A stretch of DNA of 64,000 bases from an uncultured delta proteobacterium (GCA_963739245.1 CAVTZP010000007.1:26927-90926), one strand, 5' to 3'; positions 1 through 16,909 are shown, numbered from the stretch's first letter. Program-made: numbers and translations. Notes: generated by a model from the sequence alone, not told the origin.

Positions 1-1689
1 CGGCATCAGGCTGATGGTTCCGGCCATCGGGCAGAGGAACTTGGATCCGGAATAGATTAATATATCGCGAATAGGCAGCGTCCACCCCTTGGGAACACCC
101 TTGAGGGTGGGGTCATGAGTAAGGCTTAGATGTGTCTTGACCATCATGGTAGCATACTCATCATACTTGGGGTCAGCCTCAAAAGCTTTAGCCTTGGCTT
201 CGGCTTCCGGGCTCCAGGACACACCATCAGCCCCGTAGACTACCTTGGCAACCTTATCTACTCTGTCTCTCAGCTTCATTTCATTGGGATAGAGGAACCT
301 GAAGTCATTCTTCTCCTCGCAGGCTTCTTTGACGGCGTCAGCCAGTTCCAGGGCACCAGCGCCGCCGTTAGAATAATGAGATGATGTGGCACAACGAGCT
401 CCCGCTGCCTCGGCTGCCTTGCGAACGATGGCAATCTCTTCCTTGGTATCAGTGGGGAAGCTATTGACACACACCACCGGGTTGATGCCCGAGGCTCTGA
501 TGATATTGATGTGGTGCACCAGATTGATGCAGCCCTTCTCCACTAACTCCGGTGCTGATTTCTTATAGGCTTCAGGCAGAGCTACACCAGCAACTACCTT
601 GGGACCACCGCCGTGCATCTTCAGCGACCGGACAGTGGCGACAAGCACCGACACATTTGGCTTGAGACCACTGTAGCGGCACTTGACGTTCCAGAACTTT
701 TCAAAGCCAATGTCAGCGGCAAAGCCGCTCTCGGTAACATGGTAATCAAACATCTTCAGTCCGAGGCGGTCAGCAATAATTGATGACTGCCCGACGGCGA
801 TGTTGGCAAATGGGCCGGCATGCACCATACAAGGCTGGTATTCTGCAGTACAACAGAGGGTGGGGTTAATGGTGTTGCGCATCCAGGCGGTCATGGCGCC
901 GGCTACCTCCAGGTCTCCCGTAGTAATGGGGTTCCCCTTCTTATCAAAGGCCACCGTGATGTGATTCATTCTTTCCCGCAGGTCAGCCAAATCTCTGACG
1001 ATAGACAGCATCGCCATCAGCTCCGAGCTCACCGCGATGCCAAACTTGGACTGCATCAGAAAGCCGTCCATACGCCCGCCGATGCCAATGATTATATTGC
1101 GGAGACTCTGGGCGCAGAAGTCCATTATCCAGCCCATCTCCACGCGGTTGGGGTCGACATCCAGCCGGCGCATCTTACTAAGCCTGGCTAGCTGGTCATC
1201 ATCATAGTTACGCTCGTGCTGCATCCGGGCAGTAAGGGCTACCATCGCCAGATTGTGGGCATTCATGATATCATTAATATCACCGGTAAGACCCATAGAA
1301 AACTCGGTGTGGGGGATAAGTATGGCGTTGCCGCCGCCGGCGGCGGTGCCCTTGACATTCATCGTGGGACCACCGGAAGGCTGGCGGATGCAGCCGCCAA
1401 CATTCTCCCCCTGCTTGCCCAAACCCTCCATAAGACCCATCGTGGTCGTTGTCTTCCCTTCGCCCAGGGGGGTGGGGGTAACCGCCGTCACCTCAATGTA
1501 CTTACCGTCTGGTTTATTCTTTAGCCTTTCCATAACCTTCAGGAAATCGAGCTTGGCTACCTTCCCATAAGCAAGTACTTCATCCTTTTTTAGACCCAGT
1601 TTCTCCCGCCACTCCTCTGGTGTTGGCATGTGCTCTTCTGCCGCTTCGGCAATCTGCCAATCTGCCATTTTTGACACATCGTAAGCCAT
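1..1689 (-). CDS. fhs: formate--tetrahydrofolate ligase (3' end runs off the window edge)
   Basis: Open minus-strand frame from the ATG at 1689 to position 1, absent from the ORF track because it is truncated. My translation starts [20 protein letters not shown] and contains the FTHFS nucleotide-binding signature [12 protein letters not shown]. Confidence 0.9.
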
Positions 1690-1719
1690 AGGAACCCCTT
1701 TCGTTTTAATATTTTTTAA

Positions 1720-2493
1720 TTATGATACCACAGTTGGTAACAAGGCATGGTAGATTTTTCTCACTTCACTGATAACCGGCTGACTGGCATCAAGAACCGG
1801 ACGATGGCTAAGGTCAGCATTAACTATTGCCTGGTCATAGGGGATGAAACCGAGGAATTCAAAACCGGAAAGGCTAGAGGCCAGGAATTCCCTATCTGAT
1901 TGACTCCGGACTTTGTTGGCGACTATTGCGATATTTTGTAAACCAATCTCCCCGGCCAGCTTATTGATTCTATGGGCAGTCTCAACGCTCGTTCTGCCCG
2001 GTTCCACCACTATAATCAGCTTATCCACTGCCTTAGCGGTGGCTCGCCCCAGATGCTCTACCCCAGCCTCCATGTCCAGAATAACCACTTCATTTCGTTC
2101 CAGGAGCAAGTGAGTAATCAGGGCTTGTAGCAAGGCATTTTCCGGGCAATAGCAACCACTACCCCCCTTCTTAATTCGCCCCATCACCATTAGTTTGATG
2201 CCGTTATATTCCCGAAAGTATTTTTCGGGCAAATCATCAACCTTGGGATTTAGCTTAAAAAAGCCCCCGACCTGACCGGCTGGTGCTCCAGTCCGTTCCT
2301 CAATAAGAGCGCGCATCTCAGATATAGGGGTTATCTCATCAGGATGGGGAAAGCCAAGGGTGGCTGCTAGATTAGAATTGGGGTCGGCATCTATCGCTAA
2401 AACGGCGTAGCCAGCCTCAGCAAATGTCCGGGAAAGGAGTGAGGCTAATAGGGTCTTCCCTACCCCGCCCTTACCGCTAATAGCAATCTTCAT
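1720..2493 (-). CDS. cooC: CooC/AcsF-type Ni-insertion accessory ATPase (MinD/ParA fold)
   Basis: 257 aa with the deviant P-loop SGKGGVGKT at the N-terminus and a GSGCYCPEN Cys-x-Cys metal motif. It lies immediately upstream of fhs on the same strand. Confidence 0.75.
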   Translation of the reverse strand: MKIAISGKGGVGKTLLASLLSRTFAEAGYAVLAIDADPNSNLAATLGFPHPDEITPISEMRALIEERTGAPAGQVGGFFKLNPKVDDLPEKYFREYNGIKLMVMGRIKKGGSGCYCPENALLQALITHLLLERNEVVILDMEAGVEHLGRATAKAVDKLIIVVEPGRTSVETAHRINKLAGEIGLQNIAIVANKVRSQSDREFLASSLSGFEFLGFIPYDQAIVNADLSHRPVLDASQPVISEVRKIYHALLPTVVS

Positions 2494-3951: not shown

Positions 3952-5331
3952 CTACTGTTTAGATGTTCCCCCCTCTTTCCATATCTTGCCGCCGGGGGGA
4001 AGGATAAATAGGTCTTCGCCTTCCAGCTTGGCTTGGAGGGTCTTCTTTAGCTCGGCGATGGGGACTCGTATCTGGTTCAGGCTGTCGCGCTCCCTGATGG
4101 TGACCTGCTTATCCTCAAGCGACTGGAAGTCAACGGTAACACAGAAGGGGGTGCCAATCTCGTCCTGGCGCCGGTAGCGCCGCCCGATTGACTGGGCATC
4201 ATCATACTGCGTCATAAAGTGCCGGCGCAGGTCAGTGTATATCTCCTTAGCCAGAGAGGCCAGGTTCTCCCGCCGGCTCAAGGGCAATATCGCCACCTTA
4301 ATTGGGGCCAGGTCGGGGTGGAGATGGAGCACCACCCGTAGTTCGCCCTCAGCCATCTCTTCATCATAGGCATCGCACAAAAAAGCAAGGCAGGAGCGGT
4401 CAACCCCAGCCGATGGCTCAATGATATAAGGGGTGATATGCTCCTTGGTCTCTTCATCATAATAGCTCAGGCTCTTGCCGCTAAAACTTGAGTGCTGAAC
4501 CAGGTCAAAGTCGCCGCGGTTGGCAATACCCTCCAGCTCCGCCCAGCCCATAGGGAATAGATAGTCAATGTCAGAGCACTCCTTGGCATAGTGCGCCAGT
4601 TCTTCTTTGCTGTGCGGGCGAAGCCTGAGGTTTTCCTTCTTGATGCCCAGCTTCGCATACCAGTTGGTGCGCTCCTCAACCCAGTAGTCAAACCACTGCT
4701 TAGCGCTATCCGGCTTAACGAAGAACTCAATCTCCATCTGCTCAAACTCGCGACAGCGGAAGATAAAGTTGCCGGTGGTAATCTCGTTGCGGAAGGCTTT
4801 GCCTATTTGAGCGATGCCGAAGGGCAGCCTCTTTCTGGTGCTATTGACCACATTCTCAAAGTTGACAAACATACCCTGAGCGGTCTCCGGACGCAGATAG
4901 ACCACACTAGCCTCGTCCTCAATCGGACCGATAAAGGTCTTAAACATCAGGTTAAACAGGCGAGGCTCGGTCAGCTCGCCACCGCAGGAGGGACAGCTAC
5001 TGCCCTTTAGCTCATCACTGCGCCAGCGCAGGTGGCAGCTCTTGCACTCAACCAGAGGGTCAGTAAAACTTTCAATATGTCCGCTGGCTTCCCACGTCCG
5101 GGGGTGCATCAGGATACTGGCATCCAGACCCACCATATCCTCGCGTTCCTGAACCACTGCCCGCCACCAGGCCCTTTTTACATTCTGTTTCAGCTCTACA
5201 CCCAGAGGTCCGTAGTCCCAGCAGCTGGACAAGCCGCCATAGATTTCGCTGCTGGGGAAGATAAAGCCGCGCCGCTGGCACAGCGAGACAATCTTTGCCA
5301 TATCAACCTTCGCTGGTGCTGACTCAGCCAC
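3952..5331 (-). CDS. glyQS: glycine--tRNA ligase (single-chain class II type)
   Basis: 459 aa with the typical N-terminus RRGFIFPSSEIYGG, class II motifs and a C-terminal anticodon-binding region. Confidence 0.9.
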   Translation of the reverse strand: MAESAPAKVDMAKIVSLCQRRGFIFPSSEIYGGLSSCWDYGPLGVELKQNVKRAWWRAVVQEREDMVGLDASILMHPRTWEASGHIESFTDPLVECKSCHLRWRSDELKGSSCPSCGGELTEPRLFNLMFKTFIGPIEDEASVVYLRPETAQGMFVNFENVVNSTRKRLPFGIAQIGKAFRNEITTGNFIFRCREFEQMEIEFFVKPDSAKQWFDYWVEERTNWYAKLGIKKENLRLRPHSKEELAHYAKECSDIDYLFPMGWAELEGIANRGDFDLVQHSSFSGKSLSYYDEETKEHITPYIIEPSAGVDRSCLAFLCDAYDEEMAEGELRVVLHLHPDLAPIKVAILPLSRRENLASLAKEIYTDLRRHFMTQYDDAQSIGRRYRRQDEIGTPFCVTVDFQSLEDKQVTIRERDSLNQIRVPIAELKKTLQAKLEGEDLFILPPGGKIWKEGGTSKQ

Positions 5332-5815
5332 GCTGCCCTCCTCTCACCTTTGACAAAATCAAGACTCCGAACATCACTAGACTAATAGTAACTAGCCCCA
5401 GAACAACTAACAGAAATACCCACATCGGCATAAGGTGTATTTGGTATGAATTGTAGCTGAAAATATCAACCATTGCAAAGCAGATTATAAACTGAGGCAG
5501 GGCAACGAAATTACCCGTAAATAAGACTAACCTCTCCGGTTTTATCTTGGTGCTCCCGGCTTGCCCGAATAAAGTGCTTAGTTTAGTTACCCCCCAAGCA
5601 ATGCCCCCACCCAGAAGGACAAAGACAAGCTGTAGCGCAAGCACCCAGAACATGGTCATCTCCCGGCTTAGCCACCTATCTGGTGTGCCATCAGGCTCAA
5701 AGTGGTAGGCTACCTCGGCAGGAAGCAGGGGGTAAAAGTAGGCTGACAAAGCCGCAGACAGGAGTAAAATGGCTATCGGCACTATGATGTAGCTCAGGCG
5801 CATATCAATTTTCAA
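5324..5815 (-). CDS. DUF1648-like integral membrane protein
   Basis: 163 aa with 4 predicted TM helices. The N-terminal segment YHFEPDGTPDRW resembles the DUF1648/SdpI-type N-terminal domain. Confidence 0.45.
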   Translation of the reverse strand: MKIDMRLSYIIVPIAILLLSAALSAYFYPLLPAEVAYHFEPDGTPDRWLSREMTMFWVLALQLVFVLLGGGIAWGVTKLSTLFGQAGSTKIKPERLVLFTGNFVALPQFIICFAMVDIFSYNSYQIHLMPMWVFLLVVLGLVTISLVMFGVLILSKVRGGQRG

Positions 5816-5816
5816 T

Positions 5817-6683
5817 TCAAAGATACGGGGCTAATACCCTCATTGGTGATACTATGTTTCGTGACAGCCCCAGGGCGTCAGGCTTGATACCCAGGGCGAC
5901 ACCGACCAGTTGCGTAAGGAAGAGGACGGGAAGGTTATACTTGGTCTTGAACCGGCTGTTGACCTGGCTCTGGTAGGCATCAAGGTTAATCTGACACAAG
6001 GGGCAGGGGGTAACCAGACATTGGGCGCCATTCTCCTGGGCATTGCGCAAAAGTTTATTAATCAGCTCCAAGGCCACCCCTGGCTCAGGCATAACCAGAG
6101 AGCTACCACAGCAACGAGCCTTCAGCTCCCAGGAAACGACATCAGCCCCAAGACTGGCTACCAGCTCATCCAGTGAGTGGGGGGACTCCGGGTCATCGAA
6201 GCCATCGGGACGAACCAACTGACAGCCGTAGTACGACGCTACCCTAAGCCCCTTGAGGGGCTTGGTTACCTTAGCCCTGATCGCCTCAGGGGTAATATCG
6301 TTATATAAGACCTCAGCCAGGTGCCGAACCCGAACTCCTCCCTTATAGTCCAAACCAGCCGCAGCCAGTGCCTCACCTACCTTCTTTTTGAGGATGGGGT
6401 ATTCCTTAAGATGGACATTGGCTCCGTGTAAGACGACAAAACAATTGGAGCACGGGGTTACCAGGTCAAGTCCGGTCTTTTCCGCCAGTACTAGATTTCT
6501 GGCGGCAATGCAGGCCGCCTCCAGCTTATCTACCGAACCGTAGGGGCTGGAGCCGCAGCAATTCCAATCATCAAGCTCAACCAAGTCCATATCCAATTCC
6601 TTGGCAACAGGTAGGACCGAAAGACCTAAGTGTGAAGCTGTAGCCTCAGCTGAGCAACCAGGGAAATAGGAATAACGTTTCAT
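5817..6683 (-). CDS. hdrB: heterodisulfide reductase subunit B-like (two CCG domains)
   Basis: 288 aa with two CCG-domain motifs: NCCGSS...PCSNC and RCCGSS...PCPLC. Confidence 0.85.
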   Translation of the reverse strand: MKRYSYFPGCSAEATASHLGLSVLPVAKELDMDLVELDDWNCCGSSPYGSVDKLEAACIAARNLVLAEKTGLDLVTPCSNCFVVLHGANVHLKEYPILKKKVGEALAAAGLDYKGGVRVRHLAEVLYNDITPEAIRAKVTKPLKGLRVASYYGCQLVRPDGFDDPESPHSLDELVASLGADVVSWELKARCCGSSLVMPEPGVALELINKLLRNAQENGAQCLVTPCPLCQINLDAYQSQVNSRFKTKYNLPVLFLTQLVGVALGIKPDALGLSRNIVSPMRVLAPYL

Positions 6684-7231
6684 TTAGCACCTCCCAGAAC
6701 CCTGGCTTTATTCAGGATAGCCCTAAGTTCGCCTATTCCCTTTATCCGGCTTGGCTTTAGTGGCAGGCGCTGATGCAAAAGTAACCCCAGCCCGACCGGT
6801 GCTAGCTTAAGGGCGGCAAAGGGATTGGTTTTAAGGAAGAGCTTGAGCATCATGCCGAGCTCATATACCCGCCCATTGCCCTTAGCTGAGTCAACAAAGC
6901 ATTGATACATCACCGGTGTCCGGCTTAGCCTGGTGCTCAAGCCATTCTTGATAGCTAGGACTTCCAGGGCATGCATAATATCCGTAGGCTTAATGTCCCG
7001 CGGGCAACGCACGGTGCAGGCATAACAAGAAGCACAGAACCACATGGAATTGCTGGATAATAACTCGTCCCTCAGCCCAGCCCGCACCATAGCAATAGTC
7101 TGCCGCGGTGCGTAGTCCCATTTGGTAGCAGTAGGACAGGAGCCGGTGCACATACCGCACTGAATACAGGAACGAATAGCCTCGCCACCGGGGACGGAAC
7201 ACACCTCATCAATAAAGCTCATCTCAGCCAT
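6680..7231 (-). CDS. hdrC: heterodisulfide reductase subunit C-like (2x[4Fe-4S])
   Basis: 183 aa with CIQCGMCTGSCP and CASCYACTVRCP motifs. Translationally coupled to hdrB by a 4-nt overlap. Confidence 0.8.
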   Translation of the reverse strand: MAEMSFIDEVCSVPGGEAIRSCIQCGMCTGSCPTATKWDYAPRQTIAMVRAGLRDELLSSNSMWFCASCYACTVRCPRDIKPTDIMHALEVLAIKNGLSTRLSRTPVMYQCFVDSAKGNGRVYELGMMLKLFLKTNPFAALKLAPVGLGLLLHQRLPLKPSRIKGIGELRAILNKARVLGGAK

Positions 7232-7246
7232 TTAGATTCCTCCTTC

Positions 7247-10200
7247 TTATACCAAAACCCCCTCTATCTCAGCCATTAATTCCCGGGTAGTAAAGTGCCT
7301 GCCAGCAATGGCGCCGCTGGGACAGGCAGCTACGCACACACCACAGCCCTTGCATAGCGTCTCGTTAACCCGGCTGACCCTCTTTTCCTCATCAAAGGAA
7401 ATGGCATGGAACGGACAGAGAGCACTACATGTCTTGCATCCGGAGCAGAACTCCTCGTCAACCACGGCCGTAGTCGCCTCAATCTCTATTTCGCCGGCAG
7501 TGATGGTAGCCAAAGCCCGGGCGGCAGCCGCTGAAGCCTGAACCACACTCTGCGGAATATCCTTGGGCGACTGACAGCAGCCGACGACGAAAATGCCATC
7601 GCTCATTGTTGCCACCGGGTCAAGCTTGGGGTGCTTCTCCAGGAAGAAACCATCGGCACTTCGACTGAGTGAAAACAGCCTAGCCATCTCATCGGCATCT
7701 GCCCTCGGTTGGAGAGCCGTGCTCAATACTACCATATCAACCGGGACACGGCGCTGGCGACCGATGAGGGTGTCCTCAACGACTATAATAAGCTTGCCCT
7801 GCTCCTCGGGACTCTCGGTGATATTGGTTACCTCCGCCGGGCGGCCACGGACAAATATTGTCCCTTCATCAAGAACGCGGTTATAGAACTCCTCAAAGGC
7901 TTTACCCACGCATCGGAGGTCAATATAGAATTCGTAGACCTGGGCTCCGGGGACATGCTCTCTTATCAGGTGACCAAACTTCATTGAGTACATGCAGCAC
8001 ACCTGCGAGCAATACTCATGATACTTCTTATCCCGGCTACCCACGCAGTGGATAACACCCACCGTCTTGGGATGGGAGCCATCCTTCAGCTTAACCTCGC
8101 CGCTGGTTGGTCCCGAGGCATTAATCAGCCGCTCAAACTCAAAGGCGGTGATGACATTATCAAGACGTCCATAGCCATAATAGTAGAGCGGAGTCGGGTC
8201 AAAGGCATCGTAGCCAGTAGCTAGGATTATGTTACCAACCTCCACCTCCACTAGCTCCTCCCTCATCTCCTGATTGATTGCCCCGGCTTGGCATATCTTA
8301 ACGCACTCCATGCACTCAGAACACACACCACAATTCAAGCAACGCTTGGCTTCGTCAATAGCCGTCTTTTCATCAAAGCCGAGCTCAACCTCGGCAAATC
8401 CCTCCCGCCTCTTAGGGTCAAGCGTTGGCATAGTATGCCTTGCCCTGGCTACTACCCCCTGCTTTGACACCTCTTTCACCCTGGTGATAGGGGCTGGTCT
8501 CCCCGCTTTCAGGTCAACCCCCCTGAGGTGGCGGTCTATTGAGATGGCGGCTTCCTTGCCCGCAGCAATGGCGGCAATGACATCGTCAGGACCGGAAACT
8601 ACATCGCCACCGGCAAAAACACCCTCAATGTTTGTCTGCAGGGTTACCTGGTCAACAGCCAGAGTCCCCCACCCGGTGTATTCAAGCTCCTTGGGCAGCG
8701 CTGCCTTATCCATCGCCTGCCCGATGGCGACAATTACACTATCAACATCCATATTGAATTCCGAGCCCTTAATCGGCATCGGGCGCCGACGGCCACTGGC
8801 ATCAGGTTCCCCCAGCTCCATCCGAATACACTGGATGCCAGTTACCCGCTCATCCTTAGCTAGAACCCTGACCGGCGCGGTCAGGAGGTGGAGATTTATT
8901 CCCTCACGCTCCACCTCATCCATCTCAGTGGAAACAGCGGGCATCTCAGCTCGGGAGCGCCGATAGACAAGAGAAACCTCTTTTGCCCCAAGGCGATGGG
9001 CTACCCTAGCGGCGTCTACCGCCGCATTGCCCCCGCCGATAACCACCACCCTCTCCCCAAGGTCAACCTTAATCCCCAAGCTAACCTGCTTTAGAAAATC
9101 CAGGGCATGGATTACACCCTTGGCGTCTTCATTAGGTATCCCCATCTTCAAACTTTCCCCGGCACCGCTAGCCAGGAATATGGCTTCATAGCCCTGACTG
9201 AAGATATCCTCAAGGTTCTTCATCGGGGCATTGGTCTTTATCTCCACCCCCAGCTCTTCAATATAGCTAATTTCATTAGCCACTACCTTCTTTGGCAGCC
9301 TGTGTTCAGGGATACCGTAGCGCAGAAGACCACCGCTTGCCGGGGCAGCCTCAAAGACGGTAACCGGATATCCTTGCCGTATCAGGTCGTAGGCGCAGGC
9401 CAATCCCGCTGGACCAGAGCCAATAATCGCTACCCTATCTTCCTTCGTCCGTTCAATCGGGGTTGCCTTCTTCCTCCCCACCTTCAGCTCGTAATCAGCC
9501 ATGAAACGCTTTAGAGCGCGGATGGAAACCGGCTCATCAACCTTCCCCCGCTCACACTCCAGCTCACAGGGGTGAGTGCAGACACGCCCGCAGACGCCGG
9601 CAAAGGGCATAGTTCGCCGCAGCACCTCAAGGGCTTCCTTAAACTTACCCTGAGAGATAAGGGCGACATACCCCTGGGCATTTACCCCGGCCGGACAGGC
9701 AGAGCGGCACGGTGGGTAGCCCCGCTTATCAACAGTAAAGGCATTGGGCACCGCCTGAGGGAAGGGCCTATAGATTGCCTTCCTCTGCCCCAGCCCAAGG
9801 TCAAACTCGTTGGGTACCGTAACGGGGCAGGAATTAGCACACTCACCACAGCCGGTGCACTTATCAATATCTACATATCTAGCCTTCTTTTTTATCTTAA
9901 CCTTGAAGTTGCCAACATACCCTGAGACATCAACCACCTGGCTATAGGACATTAGCTCAACATATGGGTGAGCCCCAGCCAGACTCATCTTAGGGGTAAG
10001 AATGCAAGCCGAGCAGTCAAGGGTGGGGAAGGTCTTATCCAGTTGCGCCATATGCCCCCCAATGCTGGGCGTTCTCTCCACCAGGTAGACCTTATGCCTG
10101 GAATCAGCAATCTCCAGTGCCGCCTGAATGCCGGCAATGCCCCCTCCCACCACCAGGGTATTGGGGTTGACCGGGACTCTCTTGGGCTCCAGGGGCTCCT

Positions 10201-10588
10201 GATAGGCAACACGCCTTATCGCGGCGCTAACCAGAGCCTTGGCTTTCTCGGTGGCAGCAGCACGGTCTTCGGTTATCCACGAGCAATGCTCCCTGATATT
10301 AGCCATCTCAAAGAGGTAGGGGTTTAATCCTGATTCCTGGCAGACCCGGCGGTAGGTTCGCTCATGCAGCGTTGGGGAACAGGAAGCTACCACCACCCGA
10401 TTAATCCCCAGCTCCTTAATATCCTGTCGGATAAGCTCCTGCCCTGGGTCAGAACACATATACATATAGCGGCGAGCAATAGCTACAAAAGGCAATTCCC
10501 GGGCAAATTCAGTAACCGCTTCCACATCCACCGTGCCCGCGATATTGGTCCCACAATGACAGACATAAACACCGATTTTGGGCTCCAC
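7247..10588 (-). CDS. hdrA: HdrA-like flavoprotein with a nested GltD/NfnB-like NAD(P)H-binding module
   Basis: 1113 aa, GTG start preceded by GGAGGA. It has an HdrA N-terminal Cys domain (VYVCHCGTNIAG), the FAD motif VVGGGIAGIQAA, and a C-terminal 2x[4Fe-4S] domain. Residues ~288-690 are a complete glutamate-synthase-small-subunit-like module (GRVCTHPCELEC, IIGSGPAGLACAY, VIGGGNAAVDAA, FAGGDVV). Confidence 0.85.
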   Translation of the reverse strand: MEPKIGVYVCHCGTNIAGTVDVEAVTEFARELPFVAIARRYMYMCSDPGQELIRQDIKELGINRVVVASCSPTLHERTYRRVCQESGLNPYLFEMANIREHCSWITEDRAAATEKAKALVSAAIRRVAYQEPLEPKRVPVNPNTLVVGGGIAGIQAALEIADSRHKVYLVERTPSIGGHMAQLDKTFPTLDCSACILTPKMSLAGAHPYVELMSYSQVVDVSGYVGNFKVKIKKKARYVDIDKCTGCGECANSCPVTVPNEFDLGLGQRKAIYRPFPQAVPNAFTVDKRGYPPCRSACPAGVNAQGYVALISQGKFKEALEVLRRTMPFAGVCGRVCTHPCELECERGKVDEPVSIRALKRFMADYELKVGRKKATPIERTKEDRVAIIGSGPAGLACAYDLIRQGYPVTVFEAAPASGGLLRYGIPEHRLPKKVVANEISYIEELGVEIKTNAPMKNLEDIFSQGYEAIFLASGAGESLKMGIPNEDAKGVIHALDFLKQVSLGIKVDLGERVVVIGGGNAAVDAARVAHRLGAKEVSLVYRRSRAEMPAVSTEMDEVEREGINLHLLTAPVRVLAKDERVTGIQCIRMELGEPDASGRRRPMPIKGSEFNMDVDSVIVAIGQAMDKAALPKELEYTGWGTLAVDQVTLQTNIEGVFAGGDVVSGPDDVIAAIAAGKEAAISIDRHLRGVDLKAGRPAPITRVKEVSKQGVVARARHTMPTLDPKRREGFAEVELGFDEKTAIDEAKRCLNCGVCSECMECVKICQAGAINQEMREELVEVEVGNIILATGYDAFDPTPLYYYGYGRLDNVITAFEFERLINASGPTSGEVKLKDGSHPKTVGVIHCVGSRDKKYHEYCSQVCCMYSMKFGHLIREHVPGAQVYEFYIDLRCVGKAFEEFYNRVLDEGTIFVRGRPAEVTNITESPEEQGKLIIVVEDTLIGRQRRVPVDMVVLSTALQPRADADEMARLFSLSRSADGFFLEKHPKLDPVATMSDGIFVVGCCQSPKDIPQSVVQASAAAARALATITAGEIEIEATTAVVDEEFCSGCKTCSALCPFHAISFDEEKRVSRVNETLCKGCGVCVAACPSGAIAGRHFTTRELMAEIEGVLV

Positions 10589-10646: not shown

Positions 10647-10675
10647 ATCTTAGCATAGGCGAATAGCAGGGTCAA
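10647..10675 (-). promoter_or_regulatory. candidate sigma-70 promoter for hdrACB
   Basis: Minus strand reads TTGACC, 17 nt, TAAGAT. It lies about 60 nt upstream of the hdrA GTG. Confidence 0.5.
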
Positions 10676-10707
10676 GACACTACCACTGCCAGAATTTGAT
10701 AAATTTA

Positions 10708-10736
10708 TTGACATTCCTATAGCGCTGTAGTAAAAT
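10708..10736 (+). promoter_or_regulatory. candidate sigma-70 promoter for the sigma-54-like/kinase/activator operon
   Basis: Consensus -35 TTGACA, exactly 17 nt, then -10 TAAAAT. It lies 22 nt upstream of the ATG at 10759 and is divergent from the hdrA promoter. Confidence 0.6.
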
Positions 10737-10758
10737 TTTTATACAGGTTAGGCAGCCA

Positions 10759-11817
10759 ATGGAGCAAAAGCAGTCCCCGCAGATGAGGCAGGAGCTAAGG
10801 CAAGTCCTCAGAATGGAGCAGGCAACCCTGCTGGAGATGCCTGAGGAGGAGTTCCAAAAGCTCATTGTCGAGATAGAGAGAAATCCCATCTTTCAAAGGC
10901 TGTACCAGAGGGAGGAGGTAATCCGCCGCCAGAGATTCCCCAGGACTGATATTTCCTCCAACTTCTATCAAATTAAACCGGAGCTAGTAGCTGATATCGG
11001 CTCACTTGATGTCGAATCTCTTCTGCTCAACAAGAAGCACATTGCCCATCAGATACAGAAACTGGGAATAGAAAAATTCAAGCGGTATTTCCTATTTCCT
11101 GAATCAGGGATGAGCGCAGAAGAAATCGCCGGGGAATGCAACCTGGCTGTTTCCGAGATGCAAAAGATTAATCGCCTCATTGATGAGTTCTCCATCTTGA
11201 GCGAGTTCTATCACCCTTCAGCTCTCAGCTCTGGAGGGGTGTATTATAGCAAGATTGCCTCAGTGGAGAAGAACCGGGAGGGCTTTATCATTGGCTACTT
11301 TTCACCCTCCCTCGCCCGGGGGAGGTATTCCATTGATTATGAAAGGTTTGAGCAATTAAAGGATACCCTAACCGCGGTTGAGATTAAGCAAATCAGGCAG
11401 TTATTAAAGAAGGTGGAGCTCGTCAATACCCGCAAGGATACCCTAACCCAGATACTGCAAGCCGTTGTTGAACGCCAAGCACTTTATCTGGAGTCTGGCG
11501 ATTTGAAGGCGCTCCTACCCTTCAACCAGAAGGAACTGGCCAGAAAGATCGGGCTTGCCCCCAGTTCAGTAAGTCGCGCCATCAGGGGCAAAAGCATTGA
11601 CACGCCGTGGGGTGAAGAAGTCCCGCTTAAGCACTTTTTCCCCAGACCGAAGAGTTTTAAGAAGGAGCTTTTAAGACAGCTTCTTGAAGCCGACAGGGAG
11701 CTTCCCTCCGATGAGGCAATCAAGGCAAGGCTACAGGATAAATTCGGTGTTGCTATCTCCCGGCGCTCGGTAGCCAACCTGAGGAAGGAACTAAAAATCT
11801 CACCAAGAAGGAGCTGA
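10759..11817 (+). CDS. rpoN: short sigma-54 (RpoN) family protein
   Basis: 352 aa. The N-terminus is region-I-like (LRQVLRMEQATLLEMPEEEFQKLIVEIERNPIF). The C-terminus has the sigma-54 DNA-binding HTH (SSVSRAIRGKSIDTPWGEEVPLKHFF) and an RpoN-box-like ISRRSVANLRKEL. Confidence 0.75.
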   Translation: MEQKQSPQMRQELRQVLRMEQATLLEMPEEEFQKLIVEIERNPIFQRLYQREEVIRRQRFPRTDISSNFYQIKPELVADIGSLDVESLLLNKKHIAHQIQKLGIEKFKRYFLFPESGMSAEEIAGECNLAVSEMQKINRLIDEFSILSEFYHPSALSSGGVYYSKIASVEKNREGFIIGYFSPSLARGRYSIDYERFEQLKDTLTAVEIKQIRQLLKKVELVNTRKDTLTQILQAVVERQALYLESGDLKALLPFNQKELARKIGLAPSSVSRAIRGKSIDTPWGEEVPLKHFFPRPKSFKKELLRQLLEADRELPSDEAIKARLQDKFGVAISRRSVANLRKELKISPRRS

Positions 11818-11818
11818 A

Positions 11819-13759
11819 ATGAGCATAGTTTATACTGACCGAGAAAAATGTAAGGGGTGCTATGCCTGCATCCGCATTTGTCCATGTAAGGCAATCAAGG
11901 TGGAGGAGGGCTTGGCCCAGGTGATAAAGGAACGCTGTATCGCCTGTGGCACCTGCCTTCAGGTCTGCGCTCCAAAGGCAAAGCAGGTGGAGAGCGACAT
12001 CGGGACAGTCTGGCAATTACTGACACAATATCCTAATGTAATCGCCGTCCTCTCCTCATCATTCCCCGCCGCCCTGCTCAAATGCAGCGCCGGACAGCTG
12101 GTAGCTGCCCTGAAAAAACTAGGGTTTAGCGAGGTTATGGAAGACTCCTTCGGTGCTGAGCTTGTTGCCAGGGAATATGCCCGGCTCATAAGTAAAGACA
12201 AAGGTAAGCCCCTTCTCTCCTCTAACTGCTCGGCAGTGGTAACCTACATTGAGAAATATCATCCTCAGCTAGTTGGCAACCTGGCGCCCATTGTTTCGCC
12301 AATGATTGCCACGGGCAGGATAATCAAATCGCAGTATAATCCCCAGGCTAAGGTAGTCTTCATTGGTCCCTGCGTAGCCAAGAAGGCAGAGAGCCGGGAT
12401 GAGAAAGTGGCCGGAGCCGTAGACGCCGTCCTGACCTTTGCCGAGCTGAAGGAGATGTTTGCCGCCAAAGGGGTTACCCCTGAAACCGAGGGAAGGGAAC
12501 CATTCTCCGGTCCCACACCCGGCATTGGTCGTCTCTTCCCATTGTCAAAAGGGCTATTCAGGGTGGCTAGACTACCCGAAGATATTGTTAAAAATGACAC
12601 GATAAACGCCCATGGGAAAGACTACGTGATTAGAATCCTTCGGGAATTCGCTGAGGGAGAAATCACCGCCAGACTTATTAACCTACATTTCTGCCATGGC
12701 TGCATTGATGGACCGGTTATTGATAATGAGCTGAGCGGCTTCAGGCGGAAGGAGCTTGTCGCCAGCTATGCTCGCAGCGAGATGAACCCGGACCAAACCG
12801 AGAAGGATATCAAGGAGTACTCCGGCACTGACCTTAAGCGCAAGTTTACCGCCCGAGGTGTGGGACTGGCAACGCCGAGTGAGGAAGAGGTCCAAAGCAT
12901 CTTAAAGAAGATTGGCAAGGAAGAGCCAAACCAGATAGACTGCGGCGCCTGCGGGTATAGCACCTGTCGGGAGCTGGCAATCTCTGTTTGCCAGGGCTTA
13001 GCTGAGGTTGAGATGTGCTGGCCATATGTGCTTCAGACGTTAAGGTCTACCCAAGAAGGCCTGATCCAAGCCGAGAAGCTGACCTCTTTGGGTCAGCTGG
13101 CAGCCTCCGTTGCCCACGAGATTAACAATCCTCTGGCCGGTGTCCTCGTCTATACCCAGTTACTAGCCAAGAAGATAAATAGCGACACATTCAGCAAAGA
13201 AAGTGCCACCGAATATCTGTCAAAGATGGAGACTGAGCTCATCCGCAGCAGCCGGCTAATCCGAAACCTTCTGGACTTTGCCCGGCAATCACCACCGAGG
13301 TTCTGGGAGGTGGACATTAACGAGGTCATTAACCGAAGTTTTGAACTTGCGGCTCACTCTGCACAACTACAGCACGTTCAGGTATTAAAAGAGCTTGACC
13401 CGGCACTGCCAAGGATTTCAGCTGATTTTGACCAGCTTCAGCAGGTTTGCACCAACCTTATTATGAATGCCATTCAGGCAATGCCAAATGGAGGTACGCT
13501 GACCATACGCACCTCGGCTGATAACACTCAGGTCAAGATAGAGGTTCAGGACACTGGTGTTGGCATTTCTCCGGAGAACATGCGCAAGCTGTTTACCCCC
13601 TTCTTCACCACCAAGCGGGAGGTGAAAGGGGTGGGGCTGGGCCTGGCGGTGTCCTATGGAATTGTCCAGCGACATCGGGGAAGGATTGAAGTGCAAAGTA
13701 AAGAGGGAGAGGGTACCACCTTTAACGTCTATTTACCACGGCACCATGAAGAAAGCTAA
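11819..13759 (+). CDS. soluble [FeFe]-hydrogenase-like sensor histidine kinase
   Basis: 646 aa, no TM segments. In order: 2x[4Fe-4S] ferredoxin motifs (CKGCYACIRICP, CIACGTCLQVCAP); H-cluster-domain-like motifs SSNCSA, GPCVAKKAE and FCHGCIDGP; a 4-Cys motif DCGACGYSTCRELAISVC; then HisKA (SVAHEINNPL) and HATPase_c (DTGVGI, GVGLGLAV). Confidence 0.8.
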   Translation: MSIVYTDREKCKGCYACIRICPCKAIKVEEGLAQVIKERCIACGTCLQVCAPKAKQVESDIGTVWQLLTQYPNVIAVLSSSFPAALLKCSAGQLVAALKKLGFSEVMEDSFGAELVAREYARLISKDKGKPLLSSNCSAVVTYIEKYHPQLVGNLAPIVSPMIATGRIIKSQYNPQAKVVFIGPCVAKKAESRDEKVAGAVDAVLTFAELKEMFAAKGVTPETEGREPFSGPTPGIGRLFPLSKGLFRVARLPEDIVKNDTINAHGKDYVIRILREFAEGEITARLINLHFCHGCIDGPVIDNELSGFRRKELVASYARSEMNPDQTEKDIKEYSGTDLKRKFTARGVGLATPSEEEVQSILKKIGKEEPNQIDCGACGYSTCRELAISVCQGLAEVEMCWPYVLQTLRSTQEGLIQAEKLTSLGQLAASVAHEINNPLAGVLVYTQLLAKKINSDTFSKESATEYLSKMETELIRSSRLIRNLLDFARQSPPRFWEVDINEVINRSFELAAHSAQLQHVQVLKELDPALPRISADFDQLQQVCTNLIMNAIQAMPNGGTLTIRTSADNTQVKIEVQDTGVGISPENMRKLFTPFFTTKREVKGVGLGLAVSYGIVQRHRGRIEVQSKEGEGTTFNVYLPRHHEES

Positions 13760-15107
13760 GGTTCTCGTTGTTGATGATGAAGCCATTATCCGCCAGTCAC
13801 TTCATGACTGGCTAAGCGACGCCGGTTACAAGGTGCTCACTGCGGAAAATGGACCAAAAGCCCTGGAGACTATTCAAAGGGAAGGTCCGAGGATTGTTAT
13901 TACTGATTTAGTCATGCCGGGGATGGATGGAATCGAGCTAATGAAGCGAGCCAAGGAGATATCCCCTGACATTGAAGTTATCGTCATTACCGCTTATGGA
14001 AGCATCCCTACCGCTATCAGCGCAATGAGAGAAGGAGCCTATGACTATATTGAGAAGCCATTCTGCCCAGAAAGGACTGAAATATTGATTGAAAAACTGG
14101 TGGAGCACCAAGGACTAATTGAGGAAAACCTTTCCCTGCACCAGAAATTGGAAGAGCGTTACCGATTTGAAAATATCATCGCCAAGAGTCCCAGAATGCA
14201 ACAGGTGATTGAGGTAATTAAGGTTGTAGCTAAGAGCAATGCTACTGTACTAATTACCGGCGAGACCGGCACCGGGAAGGAGCTGGTAGCACGGGCTATC
14301 CACTCCCAGAGCTACCGTTGTGGCAAGCCCTTTATTGCTGTCAGTTGTGCCGCCCTGCCTGAGACTCTCCTTGAGAGCGAGCTATTCGGTCATGAGAAGG
14401 GAGCTTTTACCGGGGCTTATGCTCAAAAGAAAGGGAAGTTTGAAATCGCCAGCCGGGGAACCCTGTTTCTAGACGAAATTGGCGAGATGAGCACTAATAT
14501 CCAGGTTCACCTGCTGAGGGTCCTGGAGGAGAAGGAATTCACCAGGGTTGGGGGCAATGAGCCAATTAAGGTTGACGTGCGGGTTATTTCCGCCACCAAT
14601 AGAGCCACGAAGGAGGCAATAGCCGAGGGGCGATTTCGGGAAGACCTCTATTATCGGTTAAACGTGGTCAACATTGAATTGCCTCCGTTAAGAGAGAGGA
14701 AGGAAGACATTCCCCTTTTAGCTCAGCATTTTTTGAAGGAGTTCGCCCTGGAGAATAATAAAGAAGTTAGCGGGTTTTCCTCCGAGGCTACCGATTTTCT
14801 ATTGAGATACGATTGGCCGGGTAATGTCAGGGAACTGGAAAATGCTATTGAACGAGCAGTCATACTTGCCCAAAAACCCCTAATTGAGCTTGATGACTTG
14901 CCTCAACAAACCTTGGTAGCCCCCTCAATCTCAGCGGAGAAAAACCTTAGGCAGGTGGAGAAAAACCATATTTTGAATGTCCTGGCTCAGACCAAGGGGA
15001 ATTATACCGAGGCAGCCAGAGTCCTGGGCATCTCAAGAATGACCCTCTATAATAAAGCCAGGGCATACGGAATAAATGTAAAGAAAGTAGACAAAGCCGA
15101 TAGTTAA
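13746..15107 (+). CDS. sigma-54-dependent response regulator (NtrC family bEBP: REC-AAA+-Fis HTH)
   Basis: Preferred start is MKKAKVLVVDDE at 13746, a 14-nt overlap with the kinase; the track start at 13656 is less likely. It has a receiver Asp (ITDLVMPG), Walker A GETGTGKE, the sigma-54 contact loop GAFTGA, and a C-terminal HTH (AARVLGISRMTLYNK). Confidence 0.9.
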   Translation: MKKAKVLVVDDEAIIRQSLHDWLSDAGYKVLTAENGPKALETIQREGPRIVITDLVMPGMDGIELMKRAKEISPDIEVIVITAYGSIPTAISAMREGAYDYIEKPFCPERTEILIEKLVEHQGLIEENLSLHQKLEERYRFENIIAKSPRMQQVIEVIKVVAKSNATVLITGETGTGKELVARAIHSQSYRCGKPFIAVSCAALPETLLESELFGHEKGAFTGAYAQKKGKFEIASRGTLFLDEIGEMSTNIQVHLLRVLEEKEFTRVGGNEPIKVDVRVISATNRATKEAIAEGRFREDLYYRLNVVNIELPPLRERKEDIPLLAQHFLKEFALENNKEVSGFSSEATDFLLRYDWPGNVRELENAIERAVILAQKPLIELDDLPQQTLVAPSISAEKNLRQVEKNHILNVLAQTKGNYTEAARVLGISRMTLYNKARAYGINVKKVDKADS

Positions 15108-15142
15108 GCCTTCAGCTTAAAATAGAGACGAGGCTATTGTTT

Positions 15143-15158
15143 TGGCAAGAAAATTGCA
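15143..15158 (+). promoter_or_regulatory. sigma-54 (-24/-12) promoter
   Basis: TGGCAA-GAAAA-TTGCA compared with the consensus TGGCAC-N5-TTGCW: exact spacing and one mismatch. It lies 53 nt upstream of the ATG at 15211, in the only sizeable intergenic gap of the locus. Confidence 0.75.
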
Positions 15159-15210
15159 TCTACTAAAAGTGGGAATAGGAATAGAAAGGCGGGTAACTGG
15201 AGGTAAATAG

Positions 15211-16206
15211 ATGAAACCAATACTGGTAGTAGAAGATGAAAGCATTGTGAGAGAGTCGCTCCGAGACTGGCTTACCGACGAAGGCTATCCGGTAGAGACA
15301 GTGGAGCACGGTGAAGAGGCGTTAAAGGTAATCGGGGAGCAGGACTTCAGCCTCCTCATCCTTGACATGAGGCTGCCGGGGAAAAGCGGGCTTGAGGTAC
15401 TAAGGGAAGCCAAGGCACAAAGACCAAAAATCAACAGTATCATCATTACCGCCTACCCGTCAGTAGAGACCGTAGTGGAGGCAATGAAGTTAGGCGCCGT
15501 TGACTATCTAACCAAGCCGCTTAGCCTTGACACCCTGGAAAAGCTGATTCAGCAGACCCTGGGACCAGTTCAACTGGAGATAAAGCCAAAGGCGGCACTC
15601 AAAGAAGCTACAGTTCAGCCTGCAGAAAAGGCAAAGGTTGAAGAAATCATAGCTATTGCCCCGGAGGAAATCCCGCTTCACATTAAACAGGGAAAGGAAT
15701 ACTTTGACACCGGTCGCTACGCTGAGGCGCTAAGGGAATTTGAGTCTATCCTCGCTATTGCCCCGGCCAACATTGAGACCCGGGTCTGGATTAGAAAGAC
15801 AAAGCAAACCCTGGCCGAGCCAAGGATTGAGGGAGTTGTTGTTGTAGAGGCCAAGCCCAAGGAGTGCCTCTGGATGAAGATGGGGCTGGTGTCTTATCGC
15901 ATCTGCACCCGGGATTATGACTGTCTCACCTGCGAGTTTGACCAGACGATGCAGGAGAAAATGGCGGCGGGGGAAACCCCCGAGCTTGACAAGGCATTGG
16001 CGCGATTCAGGGAGCTGCCAGGTAGTCAGCGGCTTTGCCGCTATGCCATCAAGGGCGATGTCTCCCACCGTATCTGCTCTCGCCTCTTCCAGTGCACCGT
16101 CTGCGAGTTCGGGCAGATGATGGAGGACGCCACCCAGCAAAAGCTAGCCAAGCTACAAGCACGACGGGAGGCGCTACTCAAAAAGGAGCAAAAAGCTAAA
16201 GCCTAA
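15211..16206 (+). CDS. response-regulator receiver protein with a TPR-like linker and duplicated Cys-rich C-terminal module
   Basis: 331 aa. REC domain (LVVEDESIVRESLRDWLTDEGY, LILDMRLPG), a TPR-like segment (GRYAEALREFESILAIAPAN), then VSYRICTRDYDCLTCEF ... LPGSQRLCRYA ... VSHRICSRLFQCTVCEF. Confidence 0.7.
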   Translation: MKPILVVEDESIVRESLRDWLTDEGYPVETVEHGEEALKVIGEQDFSLLILDMRLPGKSGLEVLREAKAQRPKINSIIITAYPSVETVVEAMKLGAVDYLTKPLSLDTLEKLIQQTLGPVQLEIKPKAALKEATVQPAEKAKVEEIIAIAPEEIPLHIKQGKEYFDTGRYAEALREFESILAIAPANIETRVWIRKTKQTLAEPRIEGVVVVEAKPKECLWMKMGLVSYRICTRDYDCLTCEFDQTMQEKMAAGETPELDKALARFRELPGSQRLCRYAIKGDVSHRICSRLFQCTVCEFGQMMEDATQQKLAKLQARREALLKKEQKAKA

Positions 16207-16235
16207 TCAGAACCTCCAGACTAGTGGTATTTAAT

Positions 16236-16271
16236 CAAAGGGTATGCTAAACTACAGCAGCATACCCTTTG
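16236..16271 (+). other. perfect 13-bp stem / 10-nt loop hairpin between the two receiver genes
   Basis: CAAAGGGTATGCT (16236-16248) pairs perfectly with AGCATACCCTTTG (16259-16271). No U-tract follows, and the next ATG is 21 nt downstream. Confidence 0.6.
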
Positions 16272-16291
16272 GCATGAGAAGGAGAAAACCA

Positions 16292-16909
16292 ATGGAAGCC
16301 AAGAAGAGAAAGATTCTGCTCGTAGAAGATGAGACCGTGCTGAGAGAAGCTCTGCGGGACTGGCTTACCGAGGATGGATATGATGTTGAGTGCGTTGACA
16401 GTGGCGAGAAAGCCCTGGACAGGGTCAAGAAGGAACAGTTTGGCGTCATAGTTCTTGACCTGAGGTTGCCGGGCATTGATGGCTTACAAGTTTTTGAGCA
16501 TGCCAAAGAACTCAAGTCAGAAACCAAGGGGATAATCATTACCGCCTACCCGTCAAAAGAGACCCTGGAAAAGGCGAAAAGGCTGGGGCTCCTTGACTAT
16601 TTAGTCAAGCCGTTCAAGCTTGAGGAGCTGGAGAAGTTAGTCAGAGGAGCACTGGGAGAGATCGAGGAAAAAAAATTAGGCAAGGAACACCTATGGTTAG
16701 AGCTCGGTGCTGTTTCCTATCGCCTCTGCGATCGCAACTATGAATGTGGGCACTGCGCCTTCGCCCAAGACATACAAGATAGGTTTGGCACGATAGCCGT
16801 CGTTGGCGAGGATGAGGTAAAAAGATTTAAACAGCTGCCCGGCAGTCAAAGACTGTGCCGGTATGCATCGGCACATTTTGTTAAGAAGGAAAAGGCAGGC
16901 TTAGATTAA
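16292..16909 (+). CDS. response-regulator receiver protein with Cys-rich C-terminal module (paralog of 15211..16206)
   Basis: Preferred start is MEAKKRKILLVEDE at 16292, with GGAG 8 nt upstream; the track start at 16244 lies inside the hairpin. REC domain (LREALRDWLTEDGY, VLDLRLPG), then VSYRLCDRNYECGHCAF ... LPGSQRLCRYA. Confidence 0.7.
   Translation: MEAKKRKILLVEDETVLREALRDWLTEDGYDVECVDSGEKALDRVKKEQFGVIVLDLRLPGIDGLQVFEHAKELKSETKGIIITAYPSKETLEKAKRLGLLDYLVKPFKLEELEKLVRGALGEIEEKKLGKEHLWLELGAVSYRLCDRNYECGHCAFAQDIQDRFGTIAVVGEDEVKRFKQLPGSQRLCRYASAHFVKKEKAGLD

Follow-up and report, generated by a model that had tools for sequence, protein, structure and literature searches.

In the canonical systems that depend on sigma-54 (RpoN), such as the NtrB/NtrC-type pairs AtoS-AtoC and ZraS-ZraR, a kinase with HisKA and HATPase domains is paired with an activator that combines a receiver (REC), an AAA+ domain with the GAFTGA motif and a helix-turn-helix (HTH), and the target is a -24/-12 promoter. 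Here, we describe a cassette of ~6 kb that is built from the same parts and that lies in a stretch of 64,000 nucleotides, hereafter called the window, recorded as coming from an uncultured delta proteobacterium (GCA_963739245.1, CAVTZP010000007.1:26927-90926). The cassette contains genes for a compact sigma-54 factor of 352 amino acids (aa), a soluble histidine kinase (HK) with a hydrogenase-like sensor, a bacterial enhancer-binding protein (bEBP) of the NtrC/AtoC type and, behind a -24/-12 promoter, two receiver proteins with a cysteine-rich module. The NtrB/NtrC-type logic is already known, as is a sigma-54 copy dedicated to one activator. What is new here is the compact sigma family, its near-obligatory packaging with a kinase, an activator and a promoter, the fusion of an [FeFe]-type sensor to the kinase, and an orphan Cys module as the only output.

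The compact sigma shares with canonical RpoN the DNA-binding half, consisting of an extra-long helix, HTH and RpoN box. However, canonical RpoN proteins measure ~430-500 aa, whereas the compact sigma lacks region II, has a single helical core-binding module and stays below the cut-off of every curated rpoN model. In Escherichia coli, rpoN is part of the lptB-rpoN-hpf-ptsN cluster, and here the sigma gene forms an operon with the kinase and activator genes. In Cupriavidus necator, the HoxBC-HoxJ-HoxA system makes transcription responsive to H2 by combining a hydrogenase-like sensor with a histidine kinase and a sigma-54 activator of the NtrC type. This system uses a separate regulatory [NiFe]-hydrogenase that is bound to the kinase, the general RpoN, and hydrogenase operons as targets, whereas the cassette has an [FeFe]-type sensor fused to its kinase, and receiver proteins as targets.

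Xanthomonas also has an operon (rpoN2-vemR-fleQ) that unites genes for a sigma-54, a receiver-only regulator and a bEBP, and VemR has been reported to interact with RpoN2 (PMC6637908, PMC12271599). Unlike the compact sigma, RpoN2 is a full-length paralogue beside the general RpoN1 and has flagellar targets, and the Xanthomonas operon has neither a kinase nor a Cys-rich output on its receiver, both of which are present in the cassette. Cereibacter sphaeroides likewise assigns one sigma-54 copy to each bEBP and a small gene set (RpoN1/NifA, RpoN2/FleQ, and RpoN3/AprX-xrpA), but these proteins are described as RpoN paralogues, and there is no histidine kinase gene near aprX (PMC11999139). A portable sigma-54 unit is carried by a mobilizable plasmid of 65 kb from Lacticaseibacillus paracasei (NZ_CP052066.1; L085, 44045-46038), on which a divergent sigma-54-interacting regulator and a PTS gene flank rpoN. 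It differs in its full-length RpoN (431 aa), its regulator of ~930 aa and its sugar-transport output.

For the sensor, the closest described proteins are TmHydS and group C1 of HydDB ('histidine-kinase linked'), which share with the cassette kinase two N-terminal [4Fe-4S] clusters, an H-domain without the proton-transfer Cys, the M353 to G substitution and a C-terminal Cx2Cx4Cx16C motif (PMC8163306). Unlike the group C hydrogenases, the cassette kinase has no PAS domain, so that the Fe-S tail runs straight into HisKA, and its L3 motif is CxxC. Kinase-linked group C1 proteins have been catalogued as proteins of unknown function, with H-cluster motifs that are sometimes doubtful (PMC11406978). 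In the cassette, the partner, the promoter and the sigma factor adjoin the sensor, and we found no description of such a case in PMC8163306 or PMC11406978.

A conserved cassette around a compact sigma-54 factor

The ORF (open reading frame) map of the window contained five co-directional ORFs on the plus strand, divergent from hdrACB. The sigma gene (10759-11817) and the kinase gene (11819-13759) are spaced by 1 nt, the start of the bEBP gene (13746-15107) overlaps the kinase stop by 14 nt, and after a gap of 103 nt follow the receiver genes REC1 (15211-16206) and REC2 (16292-16909). An earlier note, made from the sequence alone, had proposed this layout, with a sigma-54-family protein, a soluble [FeFe]-hydrogenase-like sensor kinase and a GAFTGA activator under a near-consensus sigma-70 promoter, and a cognate -24/-12 promoter in front of two receiver proteins with an unassigned Cys-rich output. 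The ORF map, the domains and motifs, and the conservation described below all bore out this architecture. No other sigma-54, bEBP, kinase or receiver gene was found in the 64-kb window, and the rest of it has the usual content of a core chromosome, including genes for tRNA synthetases, trigger factor and anaerobic oxidoreductases as well as topA and thiamine genes. The possibility of a mobile cassette was ruled out by these housekeeping surroundings, which show conserved synteny.

Relatives were collected by scanning one genome per species (GTDB), resulting in 79 loci, mostly from Dehalococcoidia and ~12 from Elusimicrobia, and gene order was counted in the 48 non-Elusimicrobia loci with more than 4.5 kb of downstream sequence. 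The cassette turned out to be conserved as a unit in ~50 species-level Dehalococcoidia genomes. A co-directional downstream activator, in the order sigma54-HK-bEBP, was present in 46 of the 48 loci, down to a sigma identity of 38%, confirming the conservation of the gene neighborhood. The hydrogenase-type kinase is found in 39 of these 46 loci, and the other 7 have a variant that matches in the transmitter only, with a membrane-embedded sensor in locus L006. A REC1-type gene follows in 34 of the 43 loci that were long enough. Judged by this conservation, the cassette is a real, chromosomally fixed regulatory module of Dehalococcoidia, organized around the compact sigma-54.

In Elusimicrobia, a bEBP gene was located near the compact sigma gene in 9 of the 12 loci, with a -24/-12 site just behind it. 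Unlike the receivers of Dehalococcoidia, the targets behind these cassettes are envelope-related. In L076 (3866-6809), they are three small lipoproteins and an OmpA-like protein, followed by the sigma gene itself. In L058 (12096-18844), a fatty-acid/lipid operon, in which a ketoacyl synthase and a methyltransferase are followed by a B12-radical-SAM enzyme and a 7TM-GAF kinase, precedes a papain-like protease, and L066 (13420-15153) has a LysM protein. In two Elusimicrobia metagenome-assembled genomes (MAGs) the compact sigma is present twice, at identities of 47% and 38% between the copies of a genome, and every copy is accompanied by a separate activator, although chimerism of the bins is possible.

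The high conservation of the family (70-80% identity among many MAGs) is what is expected of a core gene, and with its housekeeping neighbors the compact protein could be the only general rpoN of the lineage, serving other bEBPs and -24/-12 promoters elsewhere, in which case the cassette would not be autonomous. Two loci point in this direction: L072 carries a second HK-bEBP pair 3 kb downstream, and the Elusimicrobia locus L075 contains several receiver or bEBP-like genes. However, apart from L072, we found no further near-full-length bEBP in the Dehalococcoidia flanks, and few other exact matches to TGGCR-N6-TTGC turned up across 1.06 Mb of flanks from relatives, those within matched genes being coding. 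Queries with canonical sigma-54 gave no second gene in the 64-kb window or in the 1.06 Mb of flanks. A general role also does not fit well with the tie between the sigma gene and an HK-bEBP pair in nearly all non-Elusimicrobia loci and in three quarters of the Elusimicrobia loci, nor with the two Elusimicrobia MAGs in which each of the divergent copies has a bEBP of its own. We consider it unlikely that the compact protein is a general rpoN.

The compact sigma-54 factor

In the protein encoded at 10759-11817, a region-I-like N-terminus is followed by one helical core-binding module, a beta subdomain, a long helix, an HTH and an RpoN box. Domain searches were performed with Pfam and NCBIfam, and Sigma54_DBD (PF04552) was the sole Pfam match, with an E-value of 2e-21 in the window protein and a presence in 36 of 36 family members. 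The score with the equivalog model TIGR02395 was 87.4 bits, compared to a cut-off of 277.35. Of the domains foreseen in the earlier note, those of the kinase, the bEBP and the receivers were thus recovered together with Sigma54_DBD, and membership of the sigma-54 family stood, but Sigma54_AID and Sigma54_CBD were not found.

Profile-profile comparison (hhalign) with eight canonical RpoN sequences aligned 229 columns to E. coli residues 231-477 with a probability of 99.5%. These columns comprise the end of the core-binding domain (CBD), the beta-rich linker, the long helix, the HTH and the RpoN box. The N-terminal 50 residues were in register with E. coli residues 5-52, weakly by phmmer and with a probability of 75% (E 2.5e-5) by hhalign, and this region-I-like N-terminus is kept throughout the family. 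R273, in the STxSR sequence of the HTH, and R335/R336, in the RpoN box (ARRTVxKYR), are invariant or nearly so across the family; these are the arginines used in recognition of the -12 and -24 elements. The acidic region II is missing, and one helical module (approximately residues 85-150) plus the beta subdomain is present instead of the two canonical CBD subdomains. The AlphaFold2 (AF2) model had a pLDDT of 83.2, and its top 28 PDB matches in Foldseek were all sigma-54 (probability 1.0), spanning 245-424 aligned columns. The TM scores were only 0.3-0.4, because the domain orientation differs. Based on these profile and fold matches, the compact protein is homologous to sigma-54: its DNA-binding half is complete, its N-terminus plausibly contacts the activator, and its core-binding domain is reduced by half.

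The compact proteins form a discrete family. In a set of 1.84 billion representative sequences, we found 211 clusters at E<1e-30, almost all of 350-380 aa and with end-to-end alignments. The close relatives are hundreds of metagenome proteins from Dehalococcoidia/Dehalococcoidales, with 70-83% identity. Going by its similarity to Dehalococcoidales MAGs, the window would itself stem from an uncultured member of the Dehalococcoidia. JGI labels some members 'sigma54-like', and NCBI labels one sampled member 'hypothetical protein'. A description of this family was not found in the literature; Francke et al. (2011) reported sigma-54 in only 'some Chloroflexi' and none in Elusimicrobium minutum.

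Divergent from the cassette of L006 lies a gene (1053-2402, minus strand) for a 449-aa protein with a Sigma54_DBD match (6e-9) that has neither region I nor the core-binding module. Its C-terminal tail shows, by eye, GIY-YIG-like motifs (GIYELRL..FYIGSGGNLRKRL), with no Pfam match. Here, the DNA-binding half of sigma-54 may have been co-opted into another protein.

A comparable co-option, together with the missing half of the canonical CBD and the failing AID and CBD models, would agree with the compact protein being a non-sigma DNA-binding repressor or decoy at -24/-12-like operators, with a canonical sigma-54 elsewhere carrying out transcription. What argues against such a role is the family-wide conservation of the region-I-like N-terminus, which contacts the activator and the -12 fork junction, as well as the translational coupling of the gene to those of the kinase and of an activator with an intact GAFTGA. 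Moreover, the fold search gave sigma-54 over 245-320 columns, which goes beyond the DNA-binding part, and none of the flanks searched contained a canonical rpoN. A repressor or decoy is in our view very improbable.

Promoters, activator and control region

The sigma54-HK-bEBP operon is preceded by a sigma-70-type promoter (10708-10736, plus strand) composed of TTGACA (10708-10713), a 17-nt spacer and TAAAAT (10731-10736), which matches the consensus at 11 of 12 positions. Its position is conserved: with a strict pattern, at least 30 of 52 related loci showed AAATTTTCTTGACA..GTGTAAAAT equally far from the start codon. The bEBP ORF opens at 13656, but its likely start is 13746 (MKKAKVLVVDDE), where the alignment with AtoC begins. 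The protein contains REC (PF00072), Sigma54_activat (PF00158, 8e-75), AAA_lid (PF25601) and a Fis-type HTH (HTH_8, PF02954), with Walker A, Walker B and, at residue 219, an intact GAFTGA. It is closest to AtoC, with 518 bits compared to an equivalog cut-off of 714, and no equivalog cut-off was reached.

The sigma-54 promoter, TGGCAAGAAAATTGCA, is located behind the bEBP gene at 15143-15158 (plus strand), with the GG at 15144-15145, the GC at 15156-15157 and a predicted transcription start near 15169. The pattern TGGCA-N6-TTGC occurs four times in the 64-kb window, versus 0.71 times expected from shuffled sequences, and this is the only intergenic match. The other three were rejected as promoters since they lie inside coding sequence according to the ORF map; the match at 23499 was also read directly and is coding. 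In ~45 of 50 loci, the exact pattern is present between the bEBP gene and the next gene, usually as TTGGCAAGAAAATTGCA. The element TTGGCA-AGAAAA-TTGCA remains behind the bEBP gene while its flanks diverge and the intergenic length varies from ~100 to 600 nt, and its chance expectation, based on the shuffle rate in the window, is ~0.001 per intergenic region. Tandem copies of the element, spaced by 56 or 123 nt, occur in several species: L007 (13472/13595), L028 (11095/11151), L064 (12744/12800) and L039.

In most relatives, a hairpin followed by a T-run is located directly 5' of the -24 element, with folding energies of -13.6 to -22.6 kcal/mol (z -3.7 to -5.8), and its stems differ among loci while the pairing is retained. 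A protein-binding palindrome was ruled out here, given that the sequence covaries and that there is a T-run behind it. By its covariation, the hairpin of the relatives is the intrinsic terminator of the upstream operon. Since this terminator immediately precedes the -24 element, the unit behind it requires a promoter of its own. Comparison with these loci identified a degenerate remnant of the hairpin and T-run in the window (15108-15142, plus strand).

A second element of the control region is a 37-bp palindrome, GTAAAGAAAaTAGACA..TGAcTAAtTtCTTTAC, which spans the stop codon of the activator gene in 31 of the 48 loci, versus 0.8 expected. Its center lies 81-102 bp upstream of the GG, or ~155 bp where the promoter is tandemly duplicated. 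At this typical enhancer distance, the palindrome is a candidate enhancer. A comparison of window positions 15083-15142 with 10500-10570 of L002 shows that the window and its closest relatives lack the right arm of the palindrome, and that the window additionally lacks half of the hairpin found in most other species.

The kinase and its hydrogenase-like sensor

The kinase gene (11819-13759, plus strand) encodes Fer4, Fe_hyd_lg_C (PF02906, 1.5e-49), PF04060, HisKA and HATPase_c domains, in which the H-box, two CxxCxxCxxxC motifs and Cx2Cx4Cx16C (residue 375) are intact. There is no hydrophobic (transmembrane) segment, indicating that the kinase is soluble. The combination of two [4Fe-4S] clusters, an H-domain and Cx2Cx4Cx16C is the architecture of the presumed sensory [FeFe]-hydrogenases of group C (PMC8163306). 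When aligned to solved [FeFe]-hydrogenases, TSCCP is replaced by SSNCS, so that the proton-relay Cys299 is lost and the ligand Cys300 kept, and MPCxxK is replaced by GPCVAKK, in which the ligand Cys and the CN-binding Lys are kept and Met353 is changed to Gly. From this architecture, we infer that the kinase may sense H2.

The kinase can occur with another sensor. An alternative type, whose transmitter is 75-90% identical, has a membrane-embedded N-terminus of ~180 aa in place of the hydrogenase-like sensor and is found in L006 (3842-5083), L002 (~7900-9155) and L012 (12074-13342). Both kinase types are present in tandem in L012-L014.

It is quite conceivable, if somewhat less than probable, that the sensor does not carry a di-iron subcluster and simply uses Fe-S clusters to sense redox state or O2, in the manner of the Nar1/NARF-type proteins. 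The L3 motif, which reads FCHGC and therefore has CxxC instead of Cx3C, and the lost proton-transfer Cys are in line with this, as are the group C1 proteins of Hydrogenedentota, in which the H-cluster motifs are barely visible (PMC11406978). In addition, the hydrogenase-like sensor is swapped for a membrane sensor on the same transmitter in 7 of the 48 loci, which suggests that the input is exchangeable. On the other hand, L1 and L2 retain the cysteines that ligate [4Fe-4S]H, L2 also retains the CN-binding Lys, and the substitutions of M353 and C299 are the same as in TmHydS, which binds an H-cluster (PMC8163306). With a plain Fe-S sensor, the signal reported by the cassette would be the redox poise of the pool of ferredoxin and NAD(P)H, and this is compatible with the scheme proposed below.

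Receiver proteins with an orphan cysteine module

REC1 (15211-16206, plus strand) consists of a receiver, a TPR-like helical linker, two orphan four-cysteine modules and a long C-terminal helix. REC2 (16292-16909, plus strand) is a receiver followed by one cysteine module (H..C-x5-C-x2-C ... RLCRY). The ORF of REC2 opens at 16244, and 16292 is the likely start because its homologues, which are 77-93% identical, measure ~205 aa. REC2 shares with REC1 50% identity over the REC domain and 49% over the module, and it follows REC1 in a subset of the loci. Pfam recognized REC and a weak TPR in REC1 and assigned no family to the tails of the two proteins. The eight invariant cysteines of REC1 are arranged as 2x[C-x12-C-x5-C-x2-C-x-F-x-Q-x-M], and REC2 has one such repeat.

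The cysteine module had no Pfam match at E<=10 and no PDB relative in a profile search, and in 5.8 billion sequences it returned only fragments of the same proteins, with no new domain contexts. A hidden Markov model (HMM) of the module detected 57 ORFs in 1.06 Mb of related DNA, and each of them comes immediately behind the -24/-12 promoter. Loci of the deepest branches (L054, L063, and L069) encode the module as a stand-alone protein of ~140 aa that lacks a receiver. The invariance of its cysteines suggests that the orphan module is probably metal-binding.

In L012 (14802-16997), the gene directly behind the -24/-12 promoter encodes a 731-aa protein in which a receiver is joined to a GltD-like NAD(P)H Fe-S flavoprotein whose C-terminus is a 2x[4Fe-4S] ferredoxin; similar pairings are present in L013 (6734-8764) and L035 (3032-5239). 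Going by its domains, such a protein would be a response regulator whose output domain is an oxidoreductase.

The activator, REC1 and REC2 share the alpha-1 segment RESLRDWLxDxGY in all loci, which extends to the related loci the common REC block pointed out for the three receivers of the window. In two-component signaling, alpha-1 of the receiver docks onto the kinase and carries the specificity for the kinase partner. The shared segment makes a common phosphodonor plausible and is compatible with one kinase feeding three receivers.

The neighboring Hdr operon

The genes divergent from the cassette, all on the minus strand, were identified by domain matches as hdrA (7247-10588), hdrC (6680-7231) and hdrB (5817-6683). 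HdrA has 1113 aa, of which residues 286-786 form an inserted GltD-like module for NAD(P) binding (PRK12771, 542 bits with a cut-off of 516). The HdrA2 model reached 843 bits in two stretches, below its cut-off of 1100 bits, and the HdrB and HdrC models matched. HdrA split by a GltD-like module, HdrC with 2x[4Fe-4S] and HdrB with CCG are the features of an NAD(P)H-type Hdr. A sigma-70-like promoter candidate for hdrA, with TTGACC, a 17-nt spacer and TAAGAT, is present on the minus strand at 10647-10675. It matches the consensus at 9 of 12 positions and has a TG before the second hexamer. There is no -24/-12 match in the intergenic region between hdrA and the sigma gene.

An NAD(P)H-type hdrA lies at most 9 kb from the cassette in 12 of the 18 loci for which both flanks were available, in four arrangements. 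This linkage persists despite rearrangement, which argues for a functional tie, and hdr and the cassette are probably functionally linked. Transcription of hdr from the -24/-12 promoter was ruled out, since in loci with hdr downstream it is set apart by a terminator and has a sigma-70-type promoter of its own, and no -24/-12 match is present upstream of hdrA in the window. Thus, the link between cassette and Hdr that had been suggested from their adjacency gains from the recurrence of hdr in different arrangements, but it does not run through the -24/-12 promoter.

Proposed mechanism and significance

Our best reading of the cassette, which we hold to be moderately probable as a whole, is a constitutive operon combined with a sensor-driven opening of the downstream promoter, leading to receivers that act around Hdr. 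The sigma-70-type promoter would constitutively transcribe the genes for the compact sigma-54, the soluble sensor kinase and the NtrC-type bEBP. The metal clusters of the sensor would report H2 or a reduced electron-carrier pool, upon which the kinase would phosphorylate the activator. The activator would then remodel RNA polymerase containing the compact sigma-54 at the TTGGCA-N6-TTGCA promoter just downstream of its own gene, and in most relatives it is expected to do so from the palindromic enhancer across its own stop codon. The sole unit driven in this way would be that of the receiver proteins with the orphan Cys-rich and probably metal-binding module, and in some relatives the first driven gene would be the receiver fused to the GltD-like NAD(P)H Fe-S oxidoreductase. 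The receivers are probably phosphorylated by the same kinase and would drain phosphate from it, providing feedback, and they probably act on redox metabolism around the NAD(P)H-type Hdr and not on DNA. While the gene content, the domain anatomy, both promoters, the family membership and the conservation come directly from our analysis, we infer the signal that is sensed, phosphotransfer to all three receivers, binding of the compact sigma to core and the role of the cysteine module.

Several observations weigh against this scheme. Sigma54_AID (PF00309) and Sigma54_CBD (PF04963) gave no match in any of the 36 family members at E<=1, nor did the region I model PF00309 in the window protein at E<=10. 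For the N-terminal subdomain of the CBD (E. coli CBD 120-250), in which GYL and GVGAR are invariant motifs, the compact sigma has no clear counterpart, and according to the study from which the domain boundaries of sigma-54 were taken, the CBD is its most conserved feature (PMC5095919), so that core binding can only be presumed. As for the sensor, its atypical CxxC L3 motif makes a true H-cluster uncertain. HydE/F/G-type families had no match among 20 large ORFs of the window, which is weak evidence as it covers only 64 kb. The AF2 model of REC1 is of low confidence in the Cys module (pLDDT ~45-57), and the case for metal binding comes from the invariant cysteines. In the control region of the window itself, the hairpin is degenerate (-8.6 kcal/mol, z -0.6), which makes some read-through from the sigma-70 operon likely, and in the window and its closest relatives (L001-L003) the palindrome is reduced to its coding half, the right arm being lost. 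Finally, the separate sigma-70-like promoters mean that the link to Hdr is not direct transcription from the sigma-54 promoter.

A bolder and rather doubtful extension of the scheme is that compact sigma-54s are portable private circuits, each with its own kinase, bEBP and promoter, that work like extracytoplasmic function (ECF) sigma factors according to 'one sigma, one signal, one operon'. The halved CBD would bind core, several orthogonal copies could exist per genome, as in the two Elusimicrobia MAGs, and the Dehalococcoidia circuit would end in phospho-controlled metal-cluster proteins that tune the NAD(P)H-dependent Hdr. If this were true, the Dehalococcoidia cassette would show for the first time a sensory [FeFe]-hydrogenase with its output fully wired.

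So far, a sensory role of group C [FeFe]-hydrogenases has only been proposed, and the cassette may offer a minimal and testable route from an H2/redox sensor to transcription. Since the sensor-kinase fusion, its likely substrate, the sigma factor and the target promoter lie within 6 kb, the whole path could be rebuilt in vitro. If the compact protein is a true sigma, its 352 aa, lacking region II and one half of the CBD, would define the minimum for enhancer-dependent transcription, and it would be a compact part for synthetic circuits. Because the family is invisible to current annotation, surveys may under-count sigma-54 in Chloroflexota and Elusimicrobiota. The eight-cysteine receivers would represent a new output type of two-component systems, tied to energy metabolism (Hdr) in abundant uncultured subsurface bacteria.

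Other features of the Hdr region

Where hdr lies downstream of REC1, the intergenic region contains a terminator, a conserved extended -10-like sequence (TGTTATACT), a leader of ~90 nt and a second terminator-like hairpin. The conserved leader reads CGTGCTTCAAT..GTTACGGAGAAA..GGGTGGCTACAA..GTGAGCCACCCTTTTTT, and its end hairpin is located ~30 nt before the hdr start. This interval corresponds to 11752-12186 in L019 and 13860-14295 in L023, and it is also present in L021, L027, L028, L034, L035, L038, L039, L042, L044 and L050. No Rfam family was found for the leader, and it was not seen upstream of hdrA in the window. This arrangement is a candidate attenuator or riboswitch of the hdr operon.

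Directly downstream of hdrB in the window (5324-5815, minus strand) lies a gene for a DUF1648-type membrane protein of 163 aa. The same pairing with hdrB was found in L001-L004 and L017, and this protein may be a membrane partner of the NAD(P)H-type Hdr.

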